From assembly GCA_016839605.1 (NCBI GenBank), contig JAEOTX010000039.1, positions 53,541-117,540 on the forward strand: DNA of 64,000 nt, given 5' to 3'. Shown here piece after piece: positions 17,070 to 45,511 of the stretch; within the stretch, counting starts at the first letter, position 1, and the number at the start of each line of letters is the position of its first letter. The position numbers were made by a program, and so were the translations under genes. A model generated the notes under the pieces. That model saw only the letters and a program-made list of their open reading frames with translations. It was not told the origin of the DNA and ran no database searches. The DNA comes from Candidatus Thorarchaeota archaeon. GTDB lineage: Archaea; Asgardarchaeota; Thorarchaeia; Thorarchaeales; Thorarchaeaceae.

Positions 17070-17771
17070 GTGACTATGCAATTATCCGAAGAACTGGAAA
17101 AAACGGTTGAAGTCATTCGAGGAATCTTGAGAAGGCTTTCCGACCTCAACAAGGCATTAGAACCACTTGAGAGTGAGCTCAGTGCAGCGGACTTTGCTCA
17201 GAGTGGGATTTATGTTATTGGGGCGTCAGCAGGAGTGGTCTGCTTTCCAACAGTACTCCTTGAGGGGGACCCATTGAAGCCAATCCTTGAACATGCCAGA
17301 GCACGAGAAGCAAAGATGCCATCAATCGTTGAGGCGGGTGACCCTGAAGAATCGAGGAGCACCTGCGATCGAGTGATTAGGATGCTAAAGAGAGAGATTT
17401 GGAACAAAAGGGAATCTATCCTAAAGCCCAGCTTCTTGATTGTGATCAGATGGGACCATTTGTTTGAAGACTTGGAAATGAACAAGACTGTCATTATTGG
17501 ACGTCGCTATTATTCAGGATCAGAAGATAGCTTAAGGAGACTGATCAAGAATCTGAAGAAAATCGGACTGTCTGTAATTGAAGACTCCGGCCAGTATGGC
17601 GGAGGACCCATGACGTATGAATTCGTGCAAGAATTCTCCAAATCAAGGTCTTTGGTAGTTGTGCAGCTCACATTTTCAAAAAGCGTTGCAACAGATGAGA
17701 CGAAGATTTTGGCAATGCTAGAGATGTTGTCATCTTTCCAGGTGCAATCCCATGACAGATATAGTTCCTGA
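17070..17771 (+). CDS. Hypothetical protein; possible degenerate N-formylglutamate amidohydrolase-like fold
   Basis: N-terminal coiled coil; VIIG..., GLSVIEDSGQYGGG and VVQLTF resemble the FGase C-terminal motifs. Overlaps the start of the next gene. Confidence 0.55.
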   Translation: MTMQLSEELEKTVEVIRGILRRLSDLNKALEPLESELSAADFAQSGIYVIGASAGVVCFPTVLLEGDPLKPILEHARAREAKMPSIVEAGDPEESRSTCDRVIRMLKREIWNKRESILKPSFLIVIRWDHLFEDLEMNKTVIIGRRYYSGSEDSLRRLIKNLKKIGLSVIEDSGQYGGGPMTYEFVQEFSKSRSLVVVQLTFSKSVATDETKILAMLEMLSSFQVQSHDRYSS

Positions 17772-20700
17772 AAAGAATGAGATGCACCTGCCATTTGTGC
17801 ACGGCATAGAGGTAGAGCTTCAAGTCATTAAGAAAGATGGTTCATGGATTAGGGGAGAAGAAATACTTACAATCTTTGACAAGCTCATTTCGAATGCCAA
17901 AGCATTGCTTGACAAGAGAATCCAAACAGCCAGAGTAGAGTCAGTAAAGAGGAAGTATAAACATTCAAGCCAGACAGAGGAAGGTGAACGTGGCTCTAGA
18001 GTTGTAGCTCTCTATGACAATCCTAAGGGAAAACCTACCGAGTTCACACTTCTTGGACATGACCCCAACGTAACGAGTCTAACTTGGATATTAGAAATTG
18101 CGACACCTCCATGCACATCAATTGAAGAGTTGGCATGGTGGATTCAGACGCTCATTGCCATCTCTTATGAGTCGCTTCCTAAAGAGGCCAGAGCAATTCT
18201 CGTCTCAACCGGACTGAATCCCGCTCAGGAGTATCTAAAGAATCTCTCATTTGGAGAACATCATCACATTCTCGGTCCAGACGTTGATGATCATGTCCGC
18301 CTAGCTGTTTACAATATGTTCCGAAACTTCATCCCGCATCTCATTGCTCTTTCTGTTAACTCTCCCTTTGAGAATAAGAAGCCTACTGACACTGTAGAGA
18401 TTGACGAAGAGGGTAGGACCAGAGCACCAAGATGTAAGCGATCAATCAGACTCGTTAGAAACACGACACAGCTGGGGCCAACAAATGAGTTTGAATTCAT
18501 ACCATACATGGTACAGCCTGATAAGGAAGCTTTTGCTAGGCATGTAAACCGCAGCTACGCCAGAATGGTTGACATGTATCCGTTTCATCGATTAGGAACG
18601 GTAGAGCTTAGAGTCTTTGACACGCAATTGTCGATACCCAGGAGAGTGGGCATAGCACTAATACTGCAAGCTCTTGCATTGAAAGCAAAGAGAATGGTCG
18701 AACAAGGAGAGAAGATACCTGATGCGGGGGCAAAGTCACTGGCAGCGAATCGAGCGTCTGCTGTATCGGCTGGTCTCTGGGGCCCTTTTCGATCAGGTAG
18801 TGAAACTGATAATCCCGAGTTCATGCGCCTCTATAACTTCAAGGTCGATGATGACGGCGAAACGGACGACAGAAAAAGAAACAGATTCTTGGGTGACGCA
18901 GTCATATCAATGCTCTACTTGATTCGGGATGAGCTGGAAGAACTGGATGTTGTTGATAATCCGTTTATGCAACCAATCCTTGTTTCGGTGTTTGGGAGTG
19001 AAGTCGTCCCTCCAAGGACCACTGGCGCAGACTTCCAGTTGGATGTATATGCCAAATCGGACATGAATATGGTTGTACTATTGAAAAGCCTCGCTGACAT
19101 CACAAGGGAATGCTGTACCAATTGGGTATATGATCCACTTGAAGGCACGCCGAAACTACCAACATGGTTGTGCTGGTGGACAGGACTTGAGCCAGAGATA
19201 CTGACTGACATAGAACAACTTTTCGCAGGGCAGGAAGCAGAATTCATTGTTTCTCTGAGGAATACTGGTGACCGTCCCCTTTTCAATCTAGGAGTAGATT
19301 TCACCATTGAAGACTCAGCTAGAAATGTTGTACATGAGGGCGTCCGGGGAGTTCCTGAGATTAGTTCCGGGCAGATCCATTCAGAGCGAATAGTATTCCA
19401 GACCAGCAAAGAAGTTACAGCCTATAACATCATAGTAGCAATTGGACTTGCTGGAAAACAAATTCACCTGACAGGGACCTTGAACACCTACTGGATGAAG
19501 GCGAATATCAGACCAGGAACCACAACTCAGTTCTCAGATGGAAAGACACCAGTTCTTTACAAAGGCGACATTGAGACCAACTTCCCTGAATCAACCGATG
19601 TAACTGTTGATATTGCGGTCATCGCTCCAAACAAAGAAAGAGTTCTAGCTATAGTGACAGATAAGCTAAGAGTTGAGAGTCTGGATACGATATTGTTTGA
19701 CCAAACGAGTCTCCCGGCAATCGTAGTTCCTACCGATGCCTCTCATGGCGTTGAACGATGCATTTTACGCCTCAATCTTGTTGATGCTGAAGATGAGCTC
19801 ATAACATCAGTCACATCAAAGCCGTTCTATATTGGATTCGCTAGGAAAGGCCCACAACTTCTTTTCGATGCAGAACTAAAGGGAGTCTACTATCCAGGGG
19901 ATTTGATTGTTGGCGAGATTGAGCTCGCATCAAAGAAGCATTCTATGAGCAAAAATGCATTTCTACTTGTAGAGTTCCGTTCAGACTCAGGGGAACATGT
20001 TGAGATAGCCCGGTTTGGTGTAAAAGAAGTAGTTGAGGCGCCCGTGAGATTTACCTGGCGTGTGCCCCCTATCGAATCTGAAGAGCTCTCTCATCGCGCA
20101 GGTGTGATTGTATCATCGATGGTGGATAAGGGAAAGGAAGTTGCATCTACTGAGACCGTTCGCTTCAGAATAGACCGCCTTGGAGTTCTCCTAAATATTG
20201 ACTCACTTCGTGCACCAGACACAGCGCACATTGGGGGGAAGATTTCGGGATGGTTGAGAGTAAGGCGCAACACCGAACTGGGAGGCCCAGCTGGGTTGAT
20301 TGTGGCCTTGAAGTTCCCGGATGAGGAGGAACAAGTTCTCGTTGAACAAGGCGTCAAGCAAAGCAGGAATCTCTCTTTGGCCTTTGGACCAGTCACCATT
20401 CCTCAACCAAAACAGAAAAAGAAACCGTCTAGTGTGACTCTCACGGCCAAGCTGACATATGAAGGCACAGTTATAGACCAGAGATCTACAGAGATTGCGC
20501 TATCTGATGGACCGGAGGGGCAAATCGCAAGTGTGAGCTTTGCAGGGGTCCCGGCATATGTGTTACCAGATGAAGAAATTAGACCAGTTCTTCAGGTGAC
20601 AAATATCACTGGTAAGAAATTGAAGTATGATATTAGGATAGAATTGGAGTCGGTTGGAGGAACAGACAAACTGGTCAAGAGCTCTCGAACTATGGACCCA

Positions 20701-21192
20701 GGCCAGAGCAAGATTCTGCCGATACAACTGCGTGTGCCCTTGAGTGCAGAAATGAGCACTGCACACCTAAAGGCCATAGTGAAGTGCGGCAGATTAACTA
20801 TGGAAAGGAAGGAACGATTCAAGGTTAAAGCAATTGAAAGCCCCGTGTTTGATGTGGATTTCTGGATTCGAAAGAAGTCAGGTGAAGAAATACCAGGACT
20901 TGTGGCAAGGCTCACAAAAGTGGAGTTAAGAGCGAGGATAGGTGGTCTCAAAGAAGGAATGAGCGACCTGGAAGTGATTCTTAGGGTAATGTCAAGAAGA
21001 GAGATAGTGAAACAGTTTAAAGCTTCACTCTCTGAAGTTGAGGCAGGCGAGAAAGAGATCACTTTCCAGTGGACGACGCCCCCTGTTGACATGGTCACCG
21101 GGTATTATTTGGATGCTGTAATCACTCAGGATGGAAAGACTCTTCCAGATAGAGCCATTCGACAGAATCGGAAGCAATTCACAGTGTACTAG
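17752..21192 (+). CDS. Glutamate-cysteine ligase family 2 (carboxylate-amine ligase) domain fused to about 6 Ig-like beta-sandwich domains
   Basis: HGIEVELQV, LEIATPPC, FGEHHHI, LIALSVNSPF and GTVELRVFD in aa 1-330; after about aa 480, repeated units of about 110 aa with alternating hydrophobic strands. Confidence 0.8.
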   Translation: MTDIVPEKNEMHLPFVHGIEVELQVIKKDGSWIRGEEILTIFDKLISNAKALLDKRIQTARVESVKRKYKHSSQTEEGERGSRVVALYDNPKGKPTEFTLLGHDPNVTSLTWILEIATPPCTSIEELAWWIQTLIAISYESLPKEARAILVSTGLNPAQEYLKNLSFGEHHHILGPDVDDHVRLAVYNMFRNFIPHLIALSVNSPFENKKPTDTVEIDEEGRTRAPRCKRSIRLVRNTTQLGPTNEFEFIPYMVQPDKEAFARHVNRSYARMVDMYPFHRLGTVELRVFDTQLSIPRRVGIALILQALALKAKRMVEQGEKIPDAGAKSLAANRASAVSAGLWGPFRSGSETDNPEFMRLYNFKVDDDGETDDRKRNRFLGDAVISMLYLIRDELEELDVVDNPFMQPILVSVFGSEVVPPRTTGADFQLDVYAKSDMNMVVLLKSLADITRECCTNWVYDPLEGTPKLPTWLCWWTGLEPEILTDIEQLFAGQEAEFIVSLRNTGDRPLFNLGVDFTIEDSARNVVHEGVRGVPEISSGQIHSERIVFQTSKEVTAYNIIVAIGLAGKQIHLTGTLNTYWMKANIRPGTTTQFSDGKTPVLYKGDIETNFPESTDVTVDIAVIAPNKERVLAIVTDKLRVESLDTILFDQTSLPAIVVPTDASHGVERCILRLNLVDAEDELITSVTSKPFYIGFARKGPQLLFDAELKGVYYPGDLIVGEIELASKKHSMSKNAFLLVEFRSDSGEHVEIARFGVKEVVEAPVRFTWRVPPIESEELSHRAGVIVSSMVDKGKEVASTETVRFRIDRLGVLLNIDSLRAPDTAHIGGKISGWLRVRRNTELGGPAGLIVALKFPDEEEQVLVEQGVKQSRNLSLAFGPVTIPQPKQKKKPSSVTLTAKLTYEGTVIDQRSTEIALSDGPEGQIASVSFAGVPAYVLPDEEIRPVLQVTNITGKKLKYDIRIELESVGGTDKLVKSSRTMDPGQSKILPIQLRVPLSAEMSTAHLKAIVKCGRLTMERKERFKVKAIESPVFDVDFWIRKKSGEEIPGLVARLTKVELRARIGGLKEGMSDLEVILRVMSRREIVKQFKASLSEVEAGEKEITFQWTTPPVDMVTGYYLDAVITQDGKTLPDRAIRQNRKQFTVY

Positions 21193-27351: not shown

Positions 27352-28650
27352 TTGCTCTTGTCAGAAACAAGACGTCTGTTGCTGGAGTTTGAAACGGAAG
27401 AAGTTGGAATCCGTGCTTCAAAGGACAAAAGAGTGAAAAAAGCACTCGTAGGTGCTTTTTCCGATGCCTCAGACGTCGTGAGAGAACGGGCGCTGTTGGC
27501 GGCTATTGATGTTGGCGACCCAACTATTGTCATAGACATAATCAAAGCCATGACGGACGAGGAGGAGAGTGTGAGAATCGCCGCCGCCCAAGCCCTAGCA
27601 TTCTACCACCAGCCAAGAACAATTCCGGACTTGCTGAAGGGACTGCAAGATATCAATACATGGGTTAGATCTCATTGTGCAGCAGGACTCTCGAAACTTC
27701 TGAATGGACCAATATGGGCAAGAATTGAGTCAAGTGATATCGAGGAACTTGTTGCAGGCTTTCCAGAAATGGATGATGGCGCCATTCGATCAAAGCTGAA
27801 GAAGATAAGCGTGGACTCTGACGCAGTTGACAGATACATGAATTGGCGATCAAAGGACTTCGACATAGAGATTGATGTTACTGATTTCGTCAGGGAATTG
27901 GAGGAAACAGCAATAGTAATGGAAGGCGTCGCTGAAGCCTCAGCAATAGCACCACCAGATGAGGCTGCGAGAAAAACTACAGGCCTCTCAGCTGAGGTCG
28001 AAGAGATTCTGAGTGAACTGCCGGAGGACCTCCGTGAAACCCTTCCTGAAGAGGACCTTAGAAGACTTACTCCTGAAACTGCAAGAGAACTCGTCACATC
28101 ATTGACGACCGCTGTGCCTTCGAAGAAGCCCGATGAGAAGCCGAAGAAGAAAGCAGTAAAGGTCAGGAAAGTGAAAAAGGTTCGAAGGAAGAAGAAAGGA
28201 CCAAGCAGACAAGAACTTATCGAGAAGATTCCAGACGAGGTCAGGGAATCAGTTTCCGATGATGTTCTAAAGACACTGACCTATGAAGAGCTTGAAGCTC
28301 TGATAGCATCCACAACTGAGGCCGCAGCTCCTGATGTCGAGGAGCCGCCCAAGAAGCTGACGAAGAAGGAAGAGATAATTGAAACGCTTCCGCCAGAAGT
28401 GCGAGAATCAGTTGGCGATGGAAAATTAAAGAGGATGACTATCAAAGAGATTGAGGAGCTTGCCACTACAGCTAGTATGAGTGATAAGGAACGCCGACTT
28501 CAGGAGTTCACTGAAAAATACGGCGAAGAGAAAGCAAATGTTCTCGCGGGTGTACCTGATGAAATGCTGACAGGCATCCCCGAAGAACAGATCCATGAAA
28601 TGGACCTTGATACCCTAAAGGCGCTTGTACAGGCTCTGGAACACACCTAG
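27352..28650 (+). CDS. HEAT-repeat protein with four C-terminal LP-helical repeats
   Basis: HEAT/PBS repeats (D...VRERA, DEEESVRIAAAQAL, D.NTWVRSHCAAGL); Lys-rich linker; four repeats of about 29 aa. Confidence 0.8.
   Translation: MLLSETRRLLLEFETEEVGIRASKDKRVKKALVGAFSDASDVVRERALLAAIDVGDPTIVIDIIKAMTDEEESVRIAAAQALAFYHQPRTIPDLLKGLQDINTWVRSHCAAGLSKLLNGPIWARIESSDIEELVAGFPEMDDGAIRSKLKKISVDSDAVDRYMNWRSKDFDIEIDVTDFVRELEETAIVMEGVAEASAIAPPDEAARKTTGLSAEVEEILSELPEDLRETLPEEDLRRLTPETARELVTSLTTAVPSKKPDEKPKKKAVKVRKVKKVRRKKKGPSRQELIEKIPDEVRESVSDDVLKTLTYEELEALIASTTEAAAPDVEEPPKKLTKKEEIIETLPPEVRESVGDGKLKRMTIKEIEELATTASMSDKERRLQEFTEKYGEEKANVLAGVPDEMLTGIPEEQIHEMDLDTLKALVQALEHT
28000..28635 (+). repeat. Four protein-level repeats, (I/L)xxLPxExRExxxxxxLxxxTxxxxxxL
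   Basis: ILSELPEDLRETLPEEDLRRLTPETAREL; LIEKIPDEVRESVSDDVLKTLTYEELEAL; IIETLPPEVRESVGDGKLKRMTIKEIEEL; VLAGVPDEMLTGIPEEQIHEMDLDTLKAL. Confidence 0.85.
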
Positions 28651-28657
28651 TCTATAG

Positions 28658-29938
28658 CTACTCCGACCCTCGAATGACAATCGCAAACTCACTAGCCAGC
28701 TTGCCATACCATTCCAAAAGATCTCTCATATTGTCTACATGACGATAGGTTCCATTTCCGTACTGTGCCATAGCAAGCATTAATTCTTCGTCTATCTCGC
28801 TTCGCTCTCCTAGACCGATAGTGTATATCACTAGACTGGCGGTGTTCTTGAATCGCTCTTTCAAAATCTTGAGTGGAGCAGGTCCGGATGTGGTCATACC
28901 ATCGGTCATCATAATGAGCATCGTCGGCTTAGTCGGGTCTCCAAATGCATCAATGATGTCCGCAGCTCGAATGAGAGCAGTACCCATGTCAGTAAGAGTA
29001 CCTCCTTCTTCGATTTTGTCCACTACATGTGTGCTAATGATTTGAAGACCAAGAGCCTTTTCTCTTCCTGTACACTCAACGAATGGCTGGACTTCACCGG
29101 TTTCCGAACTCAAGAAAGTCATCTCAGTAACTTCCTTCTCGAAAGTCACGACACCAACTTTCTCACCATAACCTCTGCCAACCTTTTCAGCTAGGTAAAG
29201 AAGAACAGCCATGGCTGCAGCCTCACCTCTACTTACGTTTGTCCCTTCCTTGAAACGATCTAGAAATGCTTGGACCTCGGGATTATCTCCGGCAAGGTCT
29301 TTGAGTCCCTCACGTGCATGAGCTATGTCCTGAACGGGGACATCAGTCGTTTTCATAGATCCGCTTGTGTCAATGCATAATACAGCATTAAAAGGAGTGG
29401 CAATGCCTATAGTTTTGAATTGATATCCAGTCCTTTCCTTGAGTGCCTCAAACGCTAGCTTGGCAAACCTCTTTCCTGAGAGAGCAGGACGAGTTGTCAT
29501 AATCTCGACTTTCACATTCAACTCTGGCCAGATGAATGACATGCCCGGATATACGAGACGTCCACCAATGAGCTTCTCCAAAGACTCGACTTGTTCAGCA
29601 GCCCGCGTGACAAGATCTTCGGTACTTGCATCCTCAGTCAGTGGTTTAAGGCCAAATTCCACATACTCGAGCGCAGTCATGTCCTCATCATACAGTGTCA
29701 CTTCTATGCCGGAGTCGCCTTCCATTAGTAGTGAAGCCTCAAGGACCAATGTATCAATCCTAATTCTATCATCTGGAACTCCATCGTTGATTCTTATTTG
29801 AGCCGCACCCCAAAACGAAGAGGCAGGGTCCTCAAACACAACAATCGATCCCAGTTCAGCATTCAGCTTTTTAGCAGTCTTGGGATTGAGTACTGCGTAG
29901 CCTCGGAGGTCTCCGCCATCATCAATCTCCAGTTTCAC
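28658..29938 (-). CDS. Cdc48-N-like domain plus vWA domain protein (intact MIDAS)
   Basis: N-terminus RGYAVLNPKTAKKLNAELGSIV..IRID..EGD matches the Cdc48 double-psi barrel pattern; vWA motifs DTSGS, TDMG and MTDG. Confidence 0.8.
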   Translation of the reverse strand: MKLEIDDGGDLRGYAVLNPKTAKKLNAELGSIVVFEDPASSFWGAAQIRINDGVPDDRIRIDTLVLEASLLMEGDSGIEVTLYDEDMTALEYVEFGLKPLTEDASTEDLVTRAAEQVESLEKLIGGRLVYPGMSFIWPELNVKVEIMTTRPALSGKRFAKLAFEALKERTGYQFKTIGIATPFNAVLCIDTSGSMKTTDVPVQDIAHAREGLKDLAGDNPEVQAFLDRFKEGTNVSRGEAAAMAVLLYLAEKVGRGYGEKVGVVTFEKEVTEMTFLSSETGEVQPFVECTGREKALGLQIISTHVVDKIEEGGTLTDMGTALIRAADIIDAFGDPTKPTMLIMMTDGMTTSGPAPLKILKERFKNTASLVIYTIGLGERSEIDEELMLAMAQYGNGTYRHVDNMRDLLEWYGKLASEFAIVIRGSE

Positions 29939-30023
29939 CGTCTTGGTGATATCATTCTCCTCCTATTGTAAGATGTTTAACTCTTCTTCAGATTCATTAT
30001 AAAGAATTGTGCCGGATGGTTTG

Positions 30024-31532
30024 CTACGCTAGTAGCTTCAATACCTCTCTAGTTAGGTCTAGCGCCGTCTTGCTCTTAATAGGATTTGTATTGATTGCTT
30101 TAGAGAACGTGGAGTTAATCTTTTGAGTCCCAAACTCAAGGCTATCTAGAGCATCTTCACCCTTTGTACCAAGCACTGTACAACTCGTTATGGTCCCAGG
30201 TCCCCTTTTGACCCAAAGGTGTACTTCTGTGACACCTCTCCGAACACCAAGAGAAATAATGTACGAGTCAAAGTAAATGCCGTTGTGTCCACCAGAACTC
30301 ATAGATTCCATTTTTGGCCAAGTATGCTTTGGTGGTATCATATAGTCAACAGAAGTGATATCCCATCCTTCGCCGGCAATCAATTTCATTAAAGTATCCT
30401 CAAGCGTAGCAATAGCGTCGCTCTCGCAACCTATACATACTACTGCTTGTGGAGCACGCTCTGTAGCCCTTTTTGTCCCAAAAGGACGATTCACCAGGGA
30501 TAGCGCATTTCCACCGAGTATTCTTTGAGCATCCTCTAGTCCTCCAGGAAAATCGCGTGATAGAAGATGGAGAATTAGTTCTGCAGCTTGCACTGAAAGA
30601 AAGGTGTAGTCAGATCCGAAGAGCAGGTTTTCTGACCAACTCCCCAGAGTTGTCTTCAACCGATCGCTCGACATCTTCAAGAGAACCGGCACATCCTTGT
30701 CATGGAGAGTAGAGGTTTCTCCGTAGATAGCAGGGTCTCTCAAGATGTCATAGAGCTTTGTACTTCCTGGACTCATGGCGCAGTGTGCAAGGATCACACT
30801 CAATCCCCGCATGGCATTCTCGTATTTTTCATCTTGCCTCATAGAGACCACGAGGTCTCTGATCCTCTCAGCTGTCCGAATGTTCCTAGTATCCAATATC
30901 ACTGGAATGCCTAGTTCTCCTGCTCTAGCAACGACATCCTTCACATAATCGGCCTCGATATCCTCCAAAAACAGTTGGGCAAGAGGGTGGAGCTTCAGCC
31001 CTCTAAGTCCTAGCTCTCCTATTGCTCGATCTAGTTCCCGAATTGGCCGGTTCGGCGATCCCTCGAGGGCATCCTTTGGATCTACCCTCGCGAAACCAAT
31101 AAGTCTAGAGGAATGCGGCGCGCGAGATGTCCATGCCGCTATCTTGTCATTTGAAACGTAGAACGAAGGTTCATCAGGAGACCTACTCTTCGAGTAGTCA
31201 TCAGTATAAGGAAACACGATCGTTCGGTCCACAAGCCATCCGTGATTCATTCGCGACCACTTATCTTTGGTCGTGAATATTCTCTCAGGCAATTCGGGCG
31301 CAACAATCCTGATAGGCTCATAGAGCAGGCTGTCTTCATTCATCATTTTTTCAGTCATTCGCTGCATCTCAAACCACAGCAGCGCGTAGAATTCGTAGGC
31401 TCCAGAAGGGGTGTTCCGATGGCTCTTCTCTTTGCCCATGTGGTGATGAGCATCAACAATGTAAAGCCTGAACTCCTCTCCCTTAGCAATTCCTTTCTCC
31501 GGAATGTCTTGAAGTGCACGAACAACCAACAT
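30024..31532 (-). CDS. Amidohydrolase-superfamily (Amidohydro_2-like) metalloenzyme with C-terminal extension
   Basis: VDAHHH, GLKLHP, ILAH and LFGSDY motifs; RILGGNA. Confidence 0.85.
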   Translation of the reverse strand: MLVVRALQDIPEKGIAKGEEFRLYIVDAHHHMGKEKSHRNTPSGAYEFYALLWFEMQRMTEKMMNEDSLLYEPIRIVAPELPERIFTTKDKWSRMNHGWLVDRTIVFPYTDDYSKSRSPDEPSFYVSNDKIAAWTSRAPHSSRLIGFARVDPKDALEGSPNRPIRELDRAIGELGLRGLKLHPLAQLFLEDIEADYVKDVVARAGELGIPVILDTRNIRTAERIRDLVVSMRQDEKYENAMRGLSVILAHCAMSPGSTKLYDILRDPAIYGETSTLHDKDVPVLLKMSSDRLKTTLGSWSENLLFGSDYTFLSVQAAELILHLLSRDFPGGLEDAQRILGGNALSLVNRPFGTKRATERAPQAVVCIGCESDAIATLEDTLMKLIAGEGWDITSVDYMIPPKHTWPKMESMSSGGHNGIYFDSYIISLGVRRGVTEVHLWVKRGPGTITSCTVLGTKGEDALDSLEFGTQKINSTFSKAINTNPIKSKTALDLTREVLKLLA

Positions 31533-31596
31533 CTAAATGCGGCCTCGGATAATGGAGCCTACTGCCTTGTGAGAGATAAAGTATTCCTTCATAGAC

Positions 31597-31615
31597 AGAG
31601 GCAACAAGTGCCTCT
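31597..31615. promoter_or_regulatory. Inverted repeat in divergent promoter region
   Basis: agaggca-N5-tgcctct between the two divergent amidohydrolase-fold genes. Confidence 0.35.
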
Positions 31616-31676
31616 ACGTCAGGCATATATCCTAACATGAGATGAAGGAGAATAGAGTCGCTGGGAGCATGAATCA

Positions 31677-34337
31677 ATGCTAGTTGTCGAAGACACTGCA
31701 GAGGGCGAAGTGAAGCGCTTTCTATTGGTAGATGCGCTCATACAGCTAGGTGAGGTTCAAGCAGGTTCACAAAGCAGAGTCTTTGATCCAAACAGGGTTC
31801 TCTCGTTCTATAACATGGTTGAGAATCAGCTACACGACTACTCAAGCAAATATCCTGAAGCTTTCAAATATATCCCAAGAAGAGCCTATGTATACCTCAA
31901 GAGACCTCCTATTCTTAGTGAGCTATATCATGATGTCTCTTCTTCAGACACAGGCTGGTTTGTAGATCTTTTTGCAGTTAGGCCACTCTTAGGTGTGGGA
32001 GAAACGAAACTGCCTCTCGACCAGCGTAAGAACAACATCATTCGCACAGAGAACTGGAGTGTCACACCACCCTTCAGCTCAAGGCTATATCGACTTCAGG
32101 ATATGAGATATGGGAGTCGAGCTCGGAAAGGGTGGGGCGCTGTAATGAGTGCATTGGATCTTAAAGAGACTTTGAGAAACGATAATCGACCAGATCTCTT
32201 GAGGTATTTTAAATCTCAATTGCCGCTGCTAATCGAGATGGAGCAGAAAGAAGATCTTGACTTATTGATGGAATGGCTGGTTTTTCTAAAAGATGCGGGA
32301 CTTGAGGCGCCTCCCACACTTTTCTCTGTCCGGAATCATAAGTCTTGGAACTCGGAGATTATGCGGCTTCTACAAATTCCCAACTCCAGATTGCTACTTG
32401 CTGGTGCTACAATCACATCATTATCAGCATTAGTGAAGCACTTTCGAAACTCATCGGGCGGTCCTGAGTGGTCCAAGAAGTTTGTCTTTGGAAGTGCATA
32501 TCCTGAAACCCAAAAAGGAGATAGCATATCGGAGATTCTCAGCTATCTTTTGAGTAATAACCTTGGAGCAACTCCTGAAGAAGTGCAAAGGATTCTTGGA
32601 GGTAATCTTCTCAACATGTTTCCTCCTAGACCGCCATACTACGAGTATGTGGACAACACCTCCAGCGTAATTGCAGAAGGACTGATTGGAAAGGCAGCAC
32701 TAAGTGAGCTGTCAAGAATCTTCAGAATCCTGGCAGCACGAAAACTCCAGATAATTGAGTCCTTTGATTATATGATAACCAACGAAGGTGGTGAAGTTCA
32801 CCTTAATGATTCGATTTTGACTGTCCGAAATCCAATATCAACGACTGCTAACACTATCGTGCTGCTAAACGATCCGGATGAATCACTTGTTGTTACCGGT
32901 TGGAGAAAATCTCTCACTAAGAAATCAATGGGGAGAAGAGCAGATCCGCTCACATCTCTAGCTCAAGCCGCCGCTAGATCAGATGGCTCGATACTGGACT
33001 CGCCATCAGACATAAACCGATTCAACTACGCCCTCTTAGACTGTCTCAAAGTAAAGAACATCCAGGAGATTCTTTCAGCTCTTCATTTCAAGCTTAATAT
33101 GTCGGGCACAAAGAACGGAGTCCTGTTGATGTCAGAAGATGACATGAAAGCTGTGGGTGTAGCAAATGGCGATTTAGTATTGGGTATGGATGCTAAGGAG
33201 GGGCAATGGTGGGCAGGGCATTCAGAACTAGATGCCGATTGCCCTCAACGAACAGTCTGCGTTTCACAGGATGATGCCCACTTTCTTGGACTCTCTGAAG
33301 AATCAGTAGTGGACATTGTCAAGAGTGAAGGCAAAATCAAGAATTTGGATAGAGCGGTCTTTGCACTGGAATCAACAGGGGGATTCTCAAGGGCGGAACT
33401 TCTATCATATGCATACCTGCATGCGGACAGACTGCAAGAAACTCTAGATGGTCAAATCCTAGGCAAGGGAACCTCTATCTGGATCAATGGCCGGGATGCA
33501 GGCGCTTGCATGACACTCACACATTCAGTCCCATCCCTAGAATCGGGTGAACTAGCGAGGCTCCCAGGCGACTCATTGGAGTTCAGACCCTCTCAGATGT
33601 TCAGACCATTTAACATGATTTTAGCCATATCAACAGATAGTGGGATGCGTGTGCAAGACATTGAACTCAAGACTATCCAGTCTTTGAAGCGCAGGCTAAG
33701 TACACTTGTTTCAGTAGTTCCGGAGATTGATGAGCTGCTATCTGGTCTGGGAACTTCGATAACTAGAATGGATATGGCAACGCTTGCCGCTTTGCTATTG
33801 ATTCAGAGTCTGTCTGGAAATCGGTCTGAGGGATCACTAGGCATTGTCACAGTTTCCGAGTCGCCCACTAAGTTTTCAATTCAAAAAGGAGAGATTATTC
33901 AGACTAGCATGCGGTTCTCTAATGACTTTGCGTCTGAAGATGTGCTAGTGTCAATCCTCTATTCATTGTTGGATAGCTCTCGTGATTTTGGAGGTTCAGC
34001 TAGACTATCTGGGGCATTCAGGGTCATAGCTGAATTCCTAGAAGACTTTGGATCCGAAATGCCAACTCTAGTTGTGTTGATGGCCAATCTAGGCAACGAA
34101 ACCTTTGAAGATGTGAAACCTTTCCTCCAAGCAATAGGGCCCAGAGATAGATACCAAATAGAAATCCTCAACCTTGGACAAGAAGCTCATAAGCTTGGTC
34201 CTGAATTTAAAGACATCAATGTCAAAGTTCACCAAATGACTAGTTTTGCGGCCGATGTTTTTGAGGGATACTTGGCTAATGTCATTGAAAATCTAGTACC
34301 CGGAAATCTTGACCGTTCTACTTCTGACGAATTCTGA
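31677..34337 (+). CDS. Fusion of inactive amidohydrolase, Cdc48-N-like and degenerate vWA domains
   Basis: Colinear similarity to ORF 30024-31532 (metal ligands lost: VDALIQ, FGSAYP) and then to ORF 28658-29938 (MIDAS lost: ISTDSGM). Confidence 0.75.
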   Translation: MLVVEDTAEGEVKRFLLVDALIQLGEVQAGSQSRVFDPNRVLSFYNMVENQLHDYSSKYPEAFKYIPRRAYVYLKRPPILSELYHDVSSSDTGWFVDLFAVRPLLGVGETKLPLDQRKNNIIRTENWSVTPPFSSRLYRLQDMRYGSRARKGWGAVMSALDLKETLRNDNRPDLLRYFKSQLPLLIEMEQKEDLDLLMEWLVFLKDAGLEAPPTLFSVRNHKSWNSEIMRLLQIPNSRLLLAGATITSLSALVKHFRNSSGGPEWSKKFVFGSAYPETQKGDSISEILSYLLSNNLGATPEEVQRILGGNLLNMFPPRPPYYEYVDNTSSVIAEGLIGKAALSELSRIFRILAARKLQIIESFDYMITNEGGEVHLNDSILTVRNPISTTANTIVLLNDPDESLVVTGWRKSLTKKSMGRRADPLTSLAQAAARSDGSILDSPSDINRFNYALLDCLKVKNIQEILSALHFKLNMSGTKNGVLLMSEDDMKAVGVANGDLVLGMDAKEGQWWAGHSELDADCPQRTVCVSQDDAHFLGLSEESVVDIVKSEGKIKNLDRAVFALESTGGFSRAELLSYAYLHADRLQETLDGQILGKGTSIWINGRDAGACMTLTHSVPSLESGELARLPGDSLEFRPSQMFRPFNMILAISTDSGMRVQDIELKTIQSLKRRLSTLVSVVPEIDELLSGLGTSITRMDMATLAALLLIQSLSGNRSEGSLGIVTVSESPTKFSIQKGEIIQTSMRFSNDFASEDVLVSILYSLLDSSRDFGGSARLSGAFRVIAEFLEDFGSEMPTLVVLMANLGNETFEDVKPFLQAIGPRDRYQIEILNLGQEAHKLGPEFKDINVKVHQMTSFAADVFEGYLANVIENLVPGNLDRSTSDEF

Positions 34338-34608
34338 TAGACTCTATTGTGGAGATTCGTGTTTCTAAGACATCAACCTCCACTTCAGCTGCGTCTATCA
34401 CATGGCCGATTTCTTCTATCGCATTAAAGAGATCACGAATACTTGAGCCGTCTATCCGTTCTGCCTCAGCAGCTGCAATAGACAGAGCCTCTTTAACTCC
34501 CCGTAGCCGTGTATCAATCTCCTCGATGATACACAGTGCTTCCTCCAATCTACCTATTGCAGGGGGAGTTTTTAGACCCTCTGACATTAACCCCACATCC
34601 AAATTCAT
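34318..34608 (-). CDS. Small coiled-coil protein
   Basis: Heptad pattern throughout; start overlaps the upstream stop (ATGA). Confidence 0.65.
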   Translation of the reverse strand: MNLDVGLMSEGLKTPPAIGRLEEALCIIEEIDTRLRGVKEALSIAAAEAERIDGSSIRDLFNAIEEIGHVIDAAEVEVDVLETRISTIESIRIRQK

Positions 34609-35849
34609 TCAAGTAGCTGAGTAGCACGTTCCTCAATCTTTCCGAGTCGCGAAGATAGTTCTTCAAGTCTGTCAAGCATATGACCAAGCTTGTTGCGCAG
34701 CATCCCAACAGCTGCGCCCTCATCTCCACCAAAATCACCTGTCATCATTTCTGACTTCTGCTGTTCTGCTAGAATTTGAGCTTGGTTCTCAACCAACTCA
34801 AGTCTCTCGATAATATCCTCAACTGGAAATTTCTCCATACGAATTCTAAGATCATCAACCAATTTAGTAAGAGCCTCGGCCGCTATTCGCTCTTCCTCGC
34901 TCACAATCGGTCTGACTGGTTCTGTGAGAGAGAAGGATTGCTTCACTCCCTCCATTATGCCTCCACGGGGTTTGCTCACAATTACCTCGCGCGTTCTTGC
35001 TGGAGGGTGAATTCTATCACCTCTCTCGAACCAAGCTGGCACTATGAACTTCCGAGTGATATCTTCTAGGTCTGTGTCCAAGAGTATCGCGAAAGTAGCT
35101 AATTCTCGCGAATTATCCCATATTGCTAGTTCAACCAAATCTTCTTTCCTGAAAATCGCTGTGGCTACTCCTAGATTCAAATCCTCGAACACAGGTAGGT
35201 CAATCAACCAACGACTGAATAAAAGAGCAAAAGCTGGAATCTGCCTTAGCTTGCCACAGCGAAGGGCAATTTGGTATTCATCTTCCGGCTGCTGAACAGC
35301 CTGCTTTATCCATATCGATGTGTTGAATTTTCTACCTGGAATGCTCAGACTGAGAACCTCCGCGGCCTCCCATTCAATGGCATCAATTCTCAGTTGCTCA
35401 ATGTAATCCAGATTGGGCTCCTCGAATTCGGGAGAGAGTTTCTCTCCAAGGAGATACTTCAGCACAAGACGAATGATATCCTGTGGAGTGTAGTCACGCA
35501 GCCAAATCGTTGTTGCAAGCTTAGCTCGGCCCGGAGCACGTGCATCATCTGAGAGTACAACAACTAGCTTCGATGATTCCAAGCCCGGCTCTCCAAGAAT
35601 GAAAATGCCTGTTCTCCCAGGAGCATCCATGGCACGGTCAGCCATCAAATGTACAGCTTCATGGGTGGGTTCAATGTAATTCTCCTGATTGAATTTCGAA
35701 CTTGATGACTCTTGGAGCCCCTTAACCAATAGCCCCTCCTCAACCCAGCCTGATTTCAGGCCCTTCTCTGGCAGCTGAGAAATTAGATATCCTAGGACCT
35801 CGCTGCTGCTATACATTGCCTGAAGTCTGGTTATTGCTTCTTCGTTCAC
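34605..35849 (-). CDS. Hypothetical protein with C-terminal coiled coil
   Basis: 414-aa ORF with 4-nt overlaps on both sides; alpha/beta N-terminal part and heptad-rich C-terminus. Confidence 0.75.
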   Translation of the reverse strand: MNEEAITRLQAMYSSSEVLGYLISQLPEKGLKSGWVEEGLLVKGLQESSSSKFNQENYIEPTHEAVHLMADRAMDAPGRTGIFILGEPGLESSKLVVVLSDDARAPGRAKLATTIWLRDYTPQDIIRLVLKYLLGEKLSPEFEEPNLDYIEQLRIDAIEWEAAEVLSLSIPGRKFNTSIWIKQAVQQPEDEYQIALRCGKLRQIPAFALLFSRWLIDLPVFEDLNLGVATAIFRKEDLVELAIWDNSRELATFAILLDTDLEDITRKFIVPAWFERGDRIHPPARTREVIVSKPRGGIMEGVKQSFSLTEPVRPIVSEEERIAAEALTKLVDDLRIRMEKFPVEDIIERLELVENQAQILAEQQKSEMMTGDFGGDEGAAVGMLRNKLGHMLDRLEELSSRLGKIEERATQLLE

Positions 35850-36973
35850 TTGCCAACAGCCTCGCTACGAATCCTTTCGAAAATACGCTCAATCACTAGT
35901 TTAACATCTTTGTATTGGCCTATATGAATCAGACTCCCAGACCCTGCATCGGCTGTTGCCTGCATCAAAACCAAATCTGATTCGGTCCCCAATGCCACGC
36001 ATGAAACTGAAACTCCATCAGTTGCACCAATTGTCCGTGCCACACTCACTGGATTGCGACCTGATGTAAAAGCCCCTCCAGATATGAGCAAAACAACAGT
36101 GGGAAGATGATTCTGCGATCTTAATTCGTTTGCAATTTGAAGAGACATCTCCAAGGCTTTTCCGGGATTTGATGGTTCATCTTTTCGGTCATCATTTTGT
36201 GCGGAGAGCCATTCATGGATCTGGTTAAATGATTTTGAATTAAGCTCCAGTGCCATGTCCTCAACACTCTCTATTTGCTGGGGAGACTCACCAAAAGCGA
36301 TGGCTGAAACCAAGGCGTTTGGACACGCACGAGCTGAGGATAATGTGGATTGAATTACGCTTAAGCCAGCTTCTAATCGAGTCTTTCTATGAGATTCATC
36401 ATCCACTTCAACATCATCAATCTCAGATGACGCTCCGACATCGATTGCATAGCATATATTGAAGCAACTGGGCACATCTGCAAGAGCGGTGAGATTGACC
36501 TTCAGCAGCTGGTTCCATATGATTCTCGAAGCCTGCAATCCCTTAGCGACAGGGTTTGATTTGTCAACTACCAGTCTTAGGCCAAGGCCAGCAATATCAA
36601 TCCGTTGCCCAAGTTTAACAATCAGACCGTCAAGATGTTCCTTGAGATCTTCAACTTTCTTAGACACTTCATCTACAACTTTCTTGTTATCCAATCCTTT
36701 CAATGAATCCACAAGAAGAGCAAGTTCATTGCAATCGGGAATCTCCTCTGGAACTGCAGCCAAAGAAATCTCACAGTGTTCTTCGCATGCTAATTCATCG
36801 AATATTCGAGAATCGATTATTAAGGAGCCAGAATCTACTTGTTCTGATGTACGAATATCCGTATAGACTTCTACTCCTTGATAACTTAATAGTGCCGTTC
36901 TTACAGCAGTCACAGATGGATGCACAAATGATATGCCTCTCTGGTTTCGTCCTTTGACAGCTTCAAGCTCCAA
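35846..36973 (-). CDS. Cdc48-N-like domain plus degenerate vWA domain protein
   Basis: RGISFVHP..SLIIDS N-domain; FNICYAIDVGAS, SNPGKAL, LLISGG, VALG..L...A..G.G; paralog of 28658-29938. Confidence 0.7.
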   Translation of the reverse strand: MELEAVKGRNQRGISFVHPSVTAVRTALLSYQGVEVYTDIRTSEQVDSGSLIIDSRIFDELACEEHCEISLAAVPEEIPDCNELALLVDSLKGLDNKKVVDEVSKKVEDLKEHLDGLIVKLGQRIDIAGLGLRLVVDKSNPVAKGLQASRIIWNQLLKVNLTALADVPSCFNICYAIDVGASSEIDDVEVDDESHRKTRLEAGLSVIQSTLSSARACPNALVSAIAFGESPQQIESVEDMALELNSKSFNQIHEWLSAQNDDRKDEPSNPGKALEMSLQIANELRSQNHLPTVVLLISGGAFTSGRNPVSVARTIGATDGVSVSCVALGTESDLVLMQATADAGSGSLIHIGQYKDVKLVIERIFERIRSEAVGK

Positions 36974-36987
36974 AGCCTGCCACTCAC

Positions 36988-38130
36988 CTAATATAGACGC
37001 GTATTGTATATCGCAGTTGCGAGGGATTTGGAACCGTACATGACCTCAACACGCATGCTCGCTTTGCCCTTTTCATCTGACATTGGTGTGAGCTGCGATT
37101 CAATGTGTCGTTCAGAGTTGGGTCCAATTTCATGCTTCTCATTAGTAACCTCTGATACTCCTTCAGGAGTAATCAAGGTAACAACAAGCCTGATTCCAAT
37201 AACGGCACGACTTGGATTCTTCACCCTCAAGTCAAACATGAATGGCCTTCCTGCAATTAGAGCATCAGGAACGTCTCCAAGTTCAACACTCATACCCATT
37301 TTTGATGCTGCAAGTGGACGTCCCTTTGGCCATCTAGCAATCTTACTAAGCTCAAGAAGCCGCGAGAGTGATGTCTTCACATCCCTGAGTTCCAATTCAA
37401 GCTGCACAGCTGCTTCCCCAATATCAAATGTCCCATCATTTGCCTCATAATATGCGAGGACTCTGCGATCTGATTCAATTAGATCACTCACTCCCTCGAG
37501 GATTTGAAGAATAGCCTCTGGCAATTCGTGTGCCTCCTGAAGGGAATAGTATCGCCCTCCATCAACTGAATCAGCGATGCCCTTGAATGACTCCCGAACA
37601 AGGGGGTTGCATCCGCAGATGAATATGAAGACGGTCTCTCCGTAGCGGCTCTTGAGGGCTTGCACTTCTCTACGAGGATCGTGTCCCTTTGGACACCCAT
37701 CAGGGAAATAGTCATCGCCCAAGGTATTGTACGCTCTGCCATGAGGCGGCGCATCACCTACAAGAAGCAGTGCTTTGTAGGCCTGCTCATCCCAGGAGAG
37801 CTTGGTCCGTGCATCATATAATCCATCAGCGACAGCCTCAGGTGTGTCACCACCCTGAGAAGGATTAAGATTTGATATCTCTCTGTGTACGTTCTTGAGA
37901 CGATCCGAGAAATCGAATATGCGTGTCACATAGGAATGGTCCTGAGGCGGATGATCACGATATGACACTATTGCGAAACGTATACTGAGACTCTTTGTTC
38001 GTGTAGTGATTTTGTCTACGATATCAAATAGACTATCTTTCACTGCACGAATGTCATCTTTCATTGAACCAGTCGTATCTACAACAAAGGCAACGTCAAG
38101 TTTGGCTCTATGCAGCCCAATCCTCTCCAT
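36988..38130 (-). CDS. vWA domain protein with wHTH-like segment and C-terminal Ig-like domain
   Basis: DVAFVVDTTGSM, YRDH, GGDTPEA, GDAPPHG; FDIGEAAVQLELELRDVKTSLSRL (HTH-like); beta-sandwich tail. Confidence 0.85.
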   Translation of the reverse strand: MERIGLHRAKLDVAFVVDTTGSMKDDIRAVKDSLFDIVDKITTRTKSLSIRFAIVSYRDHPPQDHSYVTRIFDFSDRLKNVHREISNLNPSQGGDTPEAVADGLYDARTKLSWDEQAYKALLLVGDAPPHGRAYNTLGDDYFPDGCPKGHDPRREVQALKSRYGETVFIFICGCNPLVRESFKGIADSVDGGRYYSLQEAHELPEAILQILEGVSDLIESDRRVLAYYEANDGTFDIGEAAVQLELELRDVKTSLSRLLELSKIARWPKGRPLAASKMGMSVELGDVPDALIAGRPFMFDLRVKNPSRAVIGIRLVVTLITPEGVSEVTNEKHEIGPNSERHIESQLTPMSDEKGKASMRVEVMYGSKSLATAIYNTRLY

Positions 38131-38609: not shown

Positions 38610-39164
38610 CTAAAGACCCTGCTGCAAGTTGCGAAGAAGAAGCTCATTTTCATCAGGCTCTATCACGGTGGGATCTACGACTATACCTGGCTCATTAGCC
38701 TCAATGACTACATCAATACCAGATTGACTGACTTTCTTTATTCCTGAGTGCGATAGTGCTCTTACGCGTAGTTGTGTGGTGTCAAACTCGGTTCTATCTG
38801 CCGCTTCAACCGCCTTTACATCTCTGCGCAGTTTCGTCTTTGTTATTCTGAGCTGTTCCTTTAATTGAACCAGTTGGAGCTGAAGATCGATTCGCTCCCG
38901 ATCTGCCTCTTCGAATTTTGCTACCACATCATCATACTGGGTCTTTGAAACCAATTTCTGACTCTGATCAATCCAAGTTATGGTGGTGCCATCAAACCGA
39001 CGTTTTGTCGACACTTGTCCTAAAGCTTTGAGTACAGCAATCACATCATAGATTCGACGCTTAGGAGTGGCGAGCTGTTCAGCTAAAACATCGCTTCTAA
39101 CGCCTTCCTCCCCACATTCCTGAATTATTCTAACCGCAGTCTTCGCCAAATCTACAAGTTTCAA
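38610..39164 (-). CDS. E2F/DP-like winged-helix transcription factor
   Basis: KRRIYDVIAVLKALG..ITW matches the E2F/DP RRxYD signature; followed by a coiled coil and a beta-rich tail. Confidence 0.75.
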   Translation of the reverse strand: MKLVDLAKTAVRIIQECGEEGVRSDVLAEQLATPKRRIYDVIAVLKALGQVSTKRRFDGTTITWIDQSQKLVSKTQYDDVVAKFEEADRERIDLQLQLVQLKEQLRITKTKLRRDVKAVEAADRTEFDTTQLRVRALSHSGIKKVSQSGIDVVIEANEPGIVVDPTVIEPDENELLLRNLQQGL

Positions 39165-39421
39165 AGTCGCACCCCACTGACAAGCCGGCGAGAGTCTCCA
39201 CAGAGCACTCTTCCTCTATAGGATTCATCTACTCTATTTAAAGGTAGGTGTTATCTCTGCGATTTTCCGAACTAATTAACTGATAACCTTAATTATAATT
39301 ATCGGACGGGTTCGTCGAAAAATCGACGGTTTCGTATTACTTACACCTACCGCTAATTACTTAACTCGCGTCTTTGGCAAAAGAACGCAGGTTTCATACA
39401 AGTTTCTGCGGAGAGATTGCT

Positions 39422-40756
39422 ATGACCAGAAAAAAAGTTATCATCATGGGTGCAGCAGGCCGGGACTTCCACAACTTCAATGTGTTCTTTCGAAACAACG
39501 AAGACTATGAGGTTGTTGCGTTCACTGCTGAGCAAATACCGGGTATTGGGGATAGATTGTATCCTCCAGAGCTATCTGGAGATCTCTATCCTGACGGCAT
39601 CAAAATCTACCCAGAAGAGAAGCTACCAGAACTAGTCGAGAAATTTGAAGCTGAACAGTGCATTCTGGCATATTCTGACCTGTCCTATGATACGGTGGGT
39701 CACAAGATTGCTTGGGTGAATAGTATTGGTGCAGACATTAGACTCATGGGCACTAACACTACGATGTTGAAAAGCAAGAAGCCACTTGTAGCAATCTGTG
39801 CCGTAAGAACTGGATGCGGAAAGAGCCAGACCTCTCGACGAGTGAATCAGATTCTTGTTGATATGGGACTTAAGCCTGTTAACATACGCCATCCGATGCC
39901 ATACGACCCCGACCTTACGACCCAGATAGCACAGCGCTACGAGGTTCTGGGAGACTTGGACAAGTATAATTGCACGATTGAAGAACGTGAAGAGTACGAA
40001 CCCATGATCAACATGGGCGTGATCCTCTATGCTGGGGTTGACTACGGTGAAATTCTGAGCCAAGCTGAGGAGGAAGCAGATGTAATAACTTGGGATGGAG
40101 GGAACAATGACTTTTCCTTCTATCGCCCAGACCTGTTCATCGTAATCGCAGATCCACACAGACCAGGGCATGAAGTGTCCTACTATCCAGGAGAAACCAA
40201 CCTCATAATGGCGGATGTTGTCATCATCAATAAGGTTGAAACTGCGGACTATGATTTCGTGGAAGAAGTTAGGGATAACATCATGCGTGTCAATCCAGGT
40301 GCGGTCATCATAGAAGCTGCCTCACCTGTCACTGTAGAAGACATGAGTGTGATTCGTGGAAAGAGAGTGCTTATTGTGGAGGATGGACCCACAGTCACAC
40401 ATGGAGATATGCCATATGGAGCGGGATACATCGCAGCAAGAAAGGCAGGGGCTGAAATTGTAGACCCAAGGCCATTCGCGGTAGGCTCTATTAAGGACAC
40501 TTTTGAGAAGTACTATCATCTTGAGGATGTCCTACCAGCAATGGGATACGGTAAGACGCAGATGAAAGAGCTTGAAGATACAATCAACAAAGCAGACGTG
40601 GATGCTGTAGTAATTGGCACTCCGATTGATCTGGGGCGACTCATCAAGATCAATAAACCAAGTGTTAGAATCAGATATGACCTACAGGAGATTGGTAGGC
40701 CTAATCTCGAAGACATTCTTGCTGAGTTTGTTGAGAAAAAGGGCTTGAAGAAATAG
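39422..40756 (+). CDS. Cyclic 2,3-diphosphoglycerate synthase-like predicted GTPase (COG2403-type)
   Basis: GAAGRDFHNFN, RTGCGKSQT, RHPMPY, WDGGNND, EDGPT.THG motifs. ORF track extends to 39374. Confidence 0.85.
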   Translation: MTRKKVIIMGAAGRDFHNFNVFFRNNEDYEVVAFTAEQIPGIGDRLYPPELSGDLYPDGIKIYPEEKLPELVEKFEAEQCILAYSDLSYDTVGHKIAWVNSIGADIRLMGTNTTMLKSKKPLVAICAVRTGCGKSQTSRRVNQILVDMGLKPVNIRHPMPYDPDLTTQIAQRYEVLGDLDKYNCTIEEREEYEPMINMGVILYAGVDYGEILSQAEEEADVITWDGGNNDFSFYRPDLFIVIADPHRPGHEVSYYPGETNLIMADVVIINKVETADYDFVEEVRDNIMRVNPGAVIIEAASPVTVEDMSVIRGKRVLIVEDGPTVTHGDMPYGAGYIAARKAGAEIVDPRPFAVGSIKDTFEKYYHLEDVLPAMGYGKTQMKELEDTINKADVDAVVIGTPIDLGRLIKINKPSVRIRYDLQEIGRPNLEDILAEFVEKKGLKK

Positions 40757-45373: not shown

Positions 45374-45511
45374 GGCGGTTCACCAGGAAAATTCGTGGAG
45401 GTGGCCTTGATAAAGGCCGCGCCTTACTAGATTAGGAGACCACGAATAGTGATATAAGACTAGGTGGGTATCGCGTTCACGCTAAACACATACGCCACAC
45501 GAGGTGCTTTC

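Follow-up and report, generated by a model that had tools for sequence, protein, structure and literature searches.

A co-inherited ligase, hydrolase and Cdc48 N-domain-vWA module of Asgard archaea that probably adds and removes a chemical mark

A stretch of 64,000 nucleotides from a Candidatus Thorarchaeota archaeon (hereafter the window) harbors three genes, coding for a predicted carboxylate-amine ligase, an amidohydrolase-type metal enzyme (C) and a protein in which a Cdc48-type N-domain is followed by a von Willebrand factor A (vWA) domain (B), which together form a module that probably adds and removes a chemical mark. The module is real, conserved and apparently undescribed; its newness lies in the gene composition, and every part has a known fold. 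A sequence-only reading of the window had flagged a block of eight open reading frames (ORFs; A to H, Table 1), all of which are present, and was right on the folds but wrong on membership and on the likely job. It did not include the ligase, which lies 6 kb outside the block, and with this gene the interpretation shifts from an adaptor complex to a ligase/hydrolase module.

The distribution of the genes was surveyed in 301 Asgard genomes of 30 families, including a Thorarchaeales subset of 87 genomes, 24 of them near-complete (f, g and G label families, genera and genomes, L related loci and P homologous proteins of the B family). The presence and loss counts given are counts of genomes, which are related to one another and are not independent samples. 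B, C and the ligase are present in the same ten families and absent from the same twenty, with B detected in 176 and the ligase and C in 172 genomes each, and a query with the N-domain profile returns the same families as the B search. The close homologs of B carry the label Thorarchaeota. A single ligase is found per module copy, and in other Asgard families B and C adjoin a ligase homolog in several orders and orientations, for example as C-ligase-B on one strand in f22 and with C-B opposed to the ligase in f6, f7 and f19. The trees of the three proteins are congruent (17 module copies; distance correlation: 0.89-0.92), including the pairing of the duplicated copies in f7 and f19, and naturally occurring fusion proteins combine B with the ligase (P0187), B with an H-type vWA domain (P0159) and C with B (D). 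On a Thermoplasmata contig (L067), B, the ligase, two ubiquitin-fold genes and C stand in a row, and the presence of all three module genes there rules out an Asgard-only distribution; P0142 is also labelled Thermoplasmatota. The inherited unit is B, C and the ligase. As the sequence-only reading had proposed, several genes that include a Cdc48N-vWA adaptor and an intact metal hydrolase are conserved together as an undescribed system. The HEAT-repeat gene (A) does not belong to it, and E to G are patchy.

Gene losses follow the same unit. Seven of the near-complete Thorarchaeales genomes lack B, C and H, the last of which is found in 74/87 genomes overall; A, present in 82/87 genomes, is kept in six of them. 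In G062 and G052, A abuts a cyclophilin-like gene, B to H are gone, and the ligase and U are separately missing 6 kb away, with the genes between remaining in place. In G041 and G042 the losses are identical except that D has been kept. Two separate deletions remove the ligase with U and B-C-(E-H), and the intervening genes stay. As A remains beside the deletion when B, C and H go, it is a bystander rather than a member, and its supposed role as the scaffold of a complex falls away. Where partners have been lost, the remaining MIDAS (metal-ion-dependent adhesion site, the metal site of the vWA domain) or ligase site has decayed: G224 (one contig, 93% complete) yields no ligase or hydrolase by profile search and its B protein has lost the MIDAS, and the ligase of G019, where B, C and H are missing, is a relic in which none of the four catalytic motifs examined is left.

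The three proteins have recognizable folds and intact catalytic or metal-binding motifs. The structure model of B has a predicted local distance difference test score (pLDDT) of 90, and of 94 when residues 1-180 are folded alone. These residues match the N-domain of CDC48A (Z: 15.2; 161 aligned residues; root mean square deviation (rmsd): 2.9; Foldseek e-value: 1.7e-10), followed by those of NSF (Z: 14.3) and PEX1 (13.9), the DEPDC5 N-terminal domain (NTD; 11.8) and Ufd1 (11.0). The double-psi barrel and the second, alpha/beta subdomain of a complete Cdc48 N-domain are both present, bearing out the fold proposed from sequence patterns, and in the model the N-domain is joined to the vWA domain (Z: about 21; rmsd: 2.0) where the AAA module would sit, the protein ending at residue 426, directly after the vWA domain. 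The MIDAS residues D190, S192 and D346 are conserved in 76/76 sequences, S194 in 75/76 and T316 in 74/76. A Walker A motif occurs in none of the ORFs of the block, in agreement with the claim that it contains no AAA ATPase, and a MoxR-type ATPase is likewise absent beside B, the AAA_3 matches lying elsewhere in the five genomes searched and no Walker A-bearing neighbour recurring across lineages. The amidohydrolase assignment of C also holds. Its sequence matches PF04909 (e-value: 4e-13), it is assigned as a TIM barrel with the HxH, H, H and D metal ligands of Amidohydro_2, and D27, H29, H31, K180, H182, H250 and D308 are invariant in 27/27 diverse homologs, pointing to an intact metal hydrolase.

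By its motifs, the gene at 17752-21192 codes for a carboxylate-amine ligase of the GCS2/YbdK type. The catalytic domain spans about residues 1-450 and is followed by an immunoglobulin (Ig)-like C-terminal arm, to which CARDB matched weakly. The match to PF04107 is marginal (e-value: 2e-4; 21.3 versus 21 bits), that to TIGR02050 lies below the curated cut-off (e-value: 2e-15; 57 versus 176 bits), as do those to the YbdK equivalogs (44-48 versus 371-425 bits), and the nearest solved relative is YbdK (1r8g; profile e-value: 2e-13). The conserved residues are G18-x-E20-x-E22, D104, E115, H170-x-H172, R233, R271 and E285-x-R287-x-x-D290, such that every motif of the superfamily, namely GhExE, the acidic residues of strands 2-3, HxH, two arginines and ExRxxD, is represented (PMC2588565). 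The upstream gene U overlaps the ligase start by 20 nucleotides. In f2, f7 and f19, homologs of U immediately precede the ligase gene, its domain constitutes the C-terminal part of an upstream gene product of 380-700 amino acids in f9, f24 and f28 (profile probabilities: 86-98%), and where the module was lost, U was deleted along with the ligase.

Complex prediction with residues 7-449 of the ligase and B gave a score of 0.77 (runs: 0.80, 0.74 and 0.77), the best of three controls reaching 0.01, with at least 67% of the contacts agreeing between runs and a partner pLDDT of at least 80. The mark applied to this score was passed by 58/80 solved pairs and 2/110 mismatched pairs, counts that apply roughly to the alignments used here. 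In the predicted contact, B binds the ligase by way of its Cdc48-type N-domain, the modelled surface consisting mainly of N-domain residues (40-43, 70-75, 98-105 and 154-155) together with some residues of the vWA domain. To our knowledge, no complex of this kind has been solved.

We give about an even chance to the reading in which these genes constitute a module for reversible amide modification of proteins, of the gamma-glutamyl type. As the writer, the ligase would use ATP to phosphorylate a carboxylate, most likely the gamma-carboxyl of glutamate, and join it to an amine. C would serve as an eraser that removes the amide made by the ligase, or as a primer that prepares the carboxylate, and B would be an adaptor or reader, bound to the ligase via its N-domain, with the MIDAS holding an acidic side chain of the substrate, the tag or a partner. 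Additional docking surfaces may be provided by U, H, the dead copies D and G and the Ig-like arm of the ligase. In general, the metal of a MIDAS mediates binding to an acidic side chain of the ligand. ATP-dependent phosphorylation of a carboxylate, usually of glutamate, followed by attack of an amine, is the chemistry of the ligase superfamily, and the same fold writes Pup on proteins (PMC2588565). We infer that the hydrolase reverses the ligase and that the target is a protein, the latter being favoured by the protein-binding folds of all the non-enzymatic parts, the repeated links to ubiquitin folds and the Pup precedent. Ubiquitin-fold domains are fused to B in P0134 and P0137, and probably in P0142 and P0153. 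The gene for P0137, in which this domain is C-terminal, adjoins a ubiquitin, E1, E2 and JAB cluster (L062:4116-10454), and its tail resembles the adjacent ubiquitin-fold gene. The two tandem genes between the ligase and hydrolase of the Thermoplasmata contig (L067:8043-9003) encode an N-terminal ubiquitin fold and a common C-terminal domain, with no C-terminal GG, and their products are candidate substrates or MIDAS ligands.

Several observations weigh against this reading. No substrate or tag gene is conserved with the module, and canonical ubiquitin, considered as an obligate tag, was not found in the module-bearing Thorarchaeia G000, G018 and G024 (SAMP/Urm1 not searched). The closest solved ligase is YbdK, the carboxylate-amine ligase superfamily mostly makes small molecules (PMC2588565), and the nearest solved hydrolase-fold proteins to C are small-molecule decarboxylases, although matched weakly (e-values: 0.003-0.015). 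The predicted interface of B is, furthermore, not conserved above average (0.37 versus 0.40). A small-molecule module, with a gamma-glutamyl amide or short peptide as the ligase product (a metabolite or signal) that C breaks down by hydrolysis or decarboxylation, and with B in the role of receptor or regulatory subunit, would agree with the nearest characterised relatives of both enzymes, which act on small molecules (PMC2588565), and with the lack of a conserved tag gene, and would account for the co-inheritance evidence equally well. We consider it possible but somewhat unlikely, given that no metabolic, transport or tailoring gene recurs with the triad across lineages (the neighbours being partly annotated), and that the long Ig-like arm, the vWA domains and the repeated ubiquitin-fold fusions would be left unexplained.

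The sequence-only reading had stated that no described system shares this architecture. In a Foldseek search with the full B model, however, structures of DEPDC5/Sea1, a nutrient-signalling protein of eukaryotes, occupy ranks 1-9 over 420-460 columns (best e-value: 2.8e-14; template modelling (TM) score: about 0.4), and DEPDC5 starts with an NSF-like NTD followed by a Sec23-like SABA domain (PMC8534245). DEPDC5/Iml1 (Sea1) of GATOR1/SEACIT (PDB 9xzy, 9o5e, 7t3a and 8ae6) thus shares with B a Cdc48/NSF-type N-domain leading directly into a vWA-like domain, with no ATPase. On this basis, B could be a DEPDC5/Iml1 ortholog in a GATOR1-like regulator, where it would hold longin or roadblock proteins to a small GTPase and the enzymes would supply the nutrient-sensing input. 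A weak profile match to the DEPDC5 NTD (e-value: 0.0014), a roadblock gene before B in f9 and f24, the small GTPase-like gene heading the f22 cluster and the NPRL2-like proteins reported in Thor genomes (10.1101/2020.10.19.343400) point in the same direction. The two proteins share only 10-14% identity, however, the relative placement of their domains differs in the model, and the N-domain is closer to CDC48-N (Z: 15.2) than to the DEPDC5 NTD (Z: 11.8; rmsd: 5.1). Ordinary vWA domains lead the rigid alignments, and the low TM-score also speaks against orthology. B has an intact MIDAS, is without the SHEN, DEP and C-terminal domains and shares its inheritance with two enzymes, the ligase and the hydrolase. 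The roadblock and GTPase neighbours are limited to some lineages. The IML1 and IML1_N models (PF12257 and PF23013) gave no match to B in five genomes. DEPDC5 is not among the best 50 rigid alignments of the whole model, although absence from such a list says little. Orthology to DEPDC5 and a GATOR1-like regulator appear improbable. The likeness between B and DEPDC5 is a match of layout, the single domains being closer to p97-N or to ordinary vWA domains.

A broader proposal, that the module is an archaeal writer/eraser/reader for a glutamate-type protein mark and that B is also ancestral to the NTD-SABA tandem of DEPDC5/Iml1, part of TORC1 amino-acid signalling having been recruited from it, is speculative and in our view unlikely. 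A literature search, which covered few subscription papers, found neither the module nor a DEPDC5 homolog of Asgard archaea described. An Asgard survey names no homolog of the GATOR1 subunit DEPDC5 (10.1101/2020.10.19.343400), and the entries listed in the supplement of a further study include NPRL2 but no DEPDC5 (10.1101/2024.07.03.601958).

The model put forward by the sequence-only reading, of an eight-gene complex that is scaffolded by the HEAT protein, combines adaptor and de-modifying functions and supplies Cdc48 or the proteasome in trans, is very doubtful as a whole. Its Cdc48-N and vWA folds were borne out, two full Cdc48 genes are found on other contigs of the genome, ubiquitin-fold associations exist in other lineages, and a degradation role downstream of the mark may exist. 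The HEAT gene is, however, inherited independently, E to G are patchy, and the model has no place for the ligase, with which the N-domain is predicted to pair. No AAA or proteasome gene is conserved beside B across lineages, a PAN/Cdc48-type Walker A motif being found only beside an orphan B copy in f7, and Cdc48 is kept after the loss of the module in G052.

Comparison with the established systems further delimits the proposed modification module. Its ligase shares all the catalytic motifs of the YbdK/GCS2 enzymes (PF04107 and TIGR02050; PDB 1r8g and 1tt4), but differs from them in its large insertions, its Ig-like arm of up to about 900 amino acids and its obligate-looking partners B and C. 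Pupylation (PafA, Dop, Pup, Mpa and the 20S proteasome) employs the same ligase superfamily and possibly the same writer/eraser logic; however, the presumed eraser of the module is a TIM-barrel metal enzyme and not a ligase paralog, and pupylation has no Cdc48N-vWA subunit. No conserved small gene of the Pup type, with its G[EQ] end, recurs beside the ligase (ORFs under 80-90 amino acids were not surveyed), and neither a Dop paralog nor proteasome genes are among the recurring neighbours annotated. B shares the double-psi barrel and second subdomain with the N-domains of p97/Cdc48, NSF and PEX1 and with Ufd1 (Z: 11-15), but has no AAA rings and the ligase as its modelled partner. It also resembles the MIDAS-bearing vWA adaptors of the MoxR-vWA pairs, its partners, however, being enzymes of other folds. 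On the features tested, the module belongs neither to pupylation nor to the MoxR-vWA or GATOR1 systems.

Table 1. Genes of the module and of the adjoining block in the window
Gene	Position	Strand	Product and status
U	17070..17771	+	233 amino acids (aa), without known family; no Pfam match
ligase	17752..21192	+	1146 aa, predicted GCS2/YbdK-type carboxylate-amine ligase; core, outside the flagged block
A	27352..28650	+	HEAT-repeat protein; neighbour, not a module member
B	28658..29938	-	Cdc48-type N-domain (1-180) and vWA domain (181-424), intact MIDAS; core
C	30024..31532	-	Amidohydro_2 TIM-barrel metal enzyme with 150-aa C-terminal domain; core
D	31677..34337	+	Fusion of C-like and B-like parts, predicted catalytically dead; accessory
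E	34318..34608	-	96-aa helical protein, no Pfam match; lineage accessory
F	34605..35849	-	414 aa, no family assigned, coiled-coil tail; fast-evolving accessory
G	35846..36973	-	Divergent B paralog, MIDAS predicted dead; patchy accessory
H	36988..38130	-	vWA domain of another subfamily (intact DxTxS), Ig-like domain at the C-terminus; follows the core in Thorarchaeales

The flagged block is syntenic within the Thorarchaeales, but its mixed strands (A on the plus strand, C-B on the minus, D on the plus and H-G-F-E on the minus) show that it is not a single operon and comprises at least four transcription units. A promoter and terminator scan with bacterial consensus sequences gave results at chance level. 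In the loci of the other Asgard families, outside the Thorarchaeales, none of A, E, F, G and H was observed next to B. H and U are inherited with the core and D partly on its own, and the distribution of G and F is patchy.

D faces the live C-B pair across 144 nucleotides and is transcribed away from it. Its N-terminal half is homologous to C but degenerate, with none of the metal ligands, and its C-terminal half is B-like, identifying D as a dead C+B fusion. The B N-domain profile matches residues 471-634 of D (e-value: 2e-21) and 36-158 of G (e-value: 1e-11), and both N subdomains and the vWA domains of D and G align to B in profile-profile comparison (probability: 92-99.7%). Both proteins had been read as Cdc48N-vWA proteins, and both domains stand by homology, but the MIDAS is lost in each; of B, D, G and H, only B and H have it intact. 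The claim of multiple N-vWA paralogs likewise holds as to homology, although they represent lineage elaboration, G being present in only 52/87 Thorarchaeales genomes and mostly sharing 27-45% identity beyond its closest relatives. D occurs in f1, f2, f6, f7 and f19, is retained after core loss in G019, G041 and G042, and has been lost in genus g25. H was correctly recognized as a vWA protein (PF25106; e-value: 1.5e-13), and its Ig domain weakly resembles the ligase arm. Two tandem H-type vWA paralogs are located elsewhere in the same genome (G000 contig C88:17355-19234).

Of the two coiled-coil proteins predicted from the sequence, only F has such a region, in its tail (near residue 336, by a crude heptad scan), and E failed the scan. 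A small ORF is found at the position of E in Thorarchaeales loci. The first 300 residues of F match no family, and F is absent from some module-bearing genomes (L022 and L025). A hidden P-loop ATPase in F was rejected, as Atlas gave weak NTPase look-alikes (at most 0.78) and the Walker-A-like string is not conserved. In A, HEAT repeats are present at the N-terminus only.

Other B loci show further arrangements. Extra copies of B lacking enzyme neighbours occur in f7, f19 and f27 (L033, L035, L043, L048 and L051), and those aligned keep an intact MIDAS. At the f9 and f24 loci (e.g. L055:6924-10645), the barrel of B is present in additional copies at the N-terminus, together with a Pro-rich linker, and the gene follows the roadblock gene and a weakly gelsolin-like gene. 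The f22 locus (L053:133-4997) is headed by the small GTPase-like gene and one coding for 304 amino acids, which precede the C-ligase-B run and lie opposite a gene for a 1029-amino acid P-loop protein. The gene for the B-ligase fusion P0187 lies at the end of a metagenome contig of 99.8 kb (L061:6143-12889), next to genes for TGT, QueC, QueF, Ogg-HhH, TIR and SLATT.

Several genes further along the window were also annotated. A gene at 38610-39164 (-) encodes a winged-helix protein of the E2F/DP family (PF02319; e-value: 1e-8, above the cut-off) with a coiled coil, and is conserved across the Thorarchaeales and retained when the module is lost. The 460-amino acid product of 39374-40756 (+) shares 78-82% identity across genera and shows a weak cobW-type nucleotide-binding match. 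The 221-amino acid product of 45464-46129 (+), which by eye appeared to combine a longin-like domain with a winged helix and was considered as a possible NPRL2, was rejected as such, Pfam showing a weak helix-turn-helix only.

The ligase-hydrolase-adaptor set occurs in over half of the Asgard genomes sampled and is kept, duplicated, fused and lost as a unit. The stand-alone Cdc48 N-domain thereby gains a concrete predicted partner, and B is the only prokaryotic candidate found for the front half of DEPDC5. As the module comprises three soluble proteins with defined active-site residues, the question of its function is directly testable. If it does mark proteins, the closest archaeal relatives of eukaryotes would possess a tagging chemistry that is neither ubiquitin, SAMP nor Pup.

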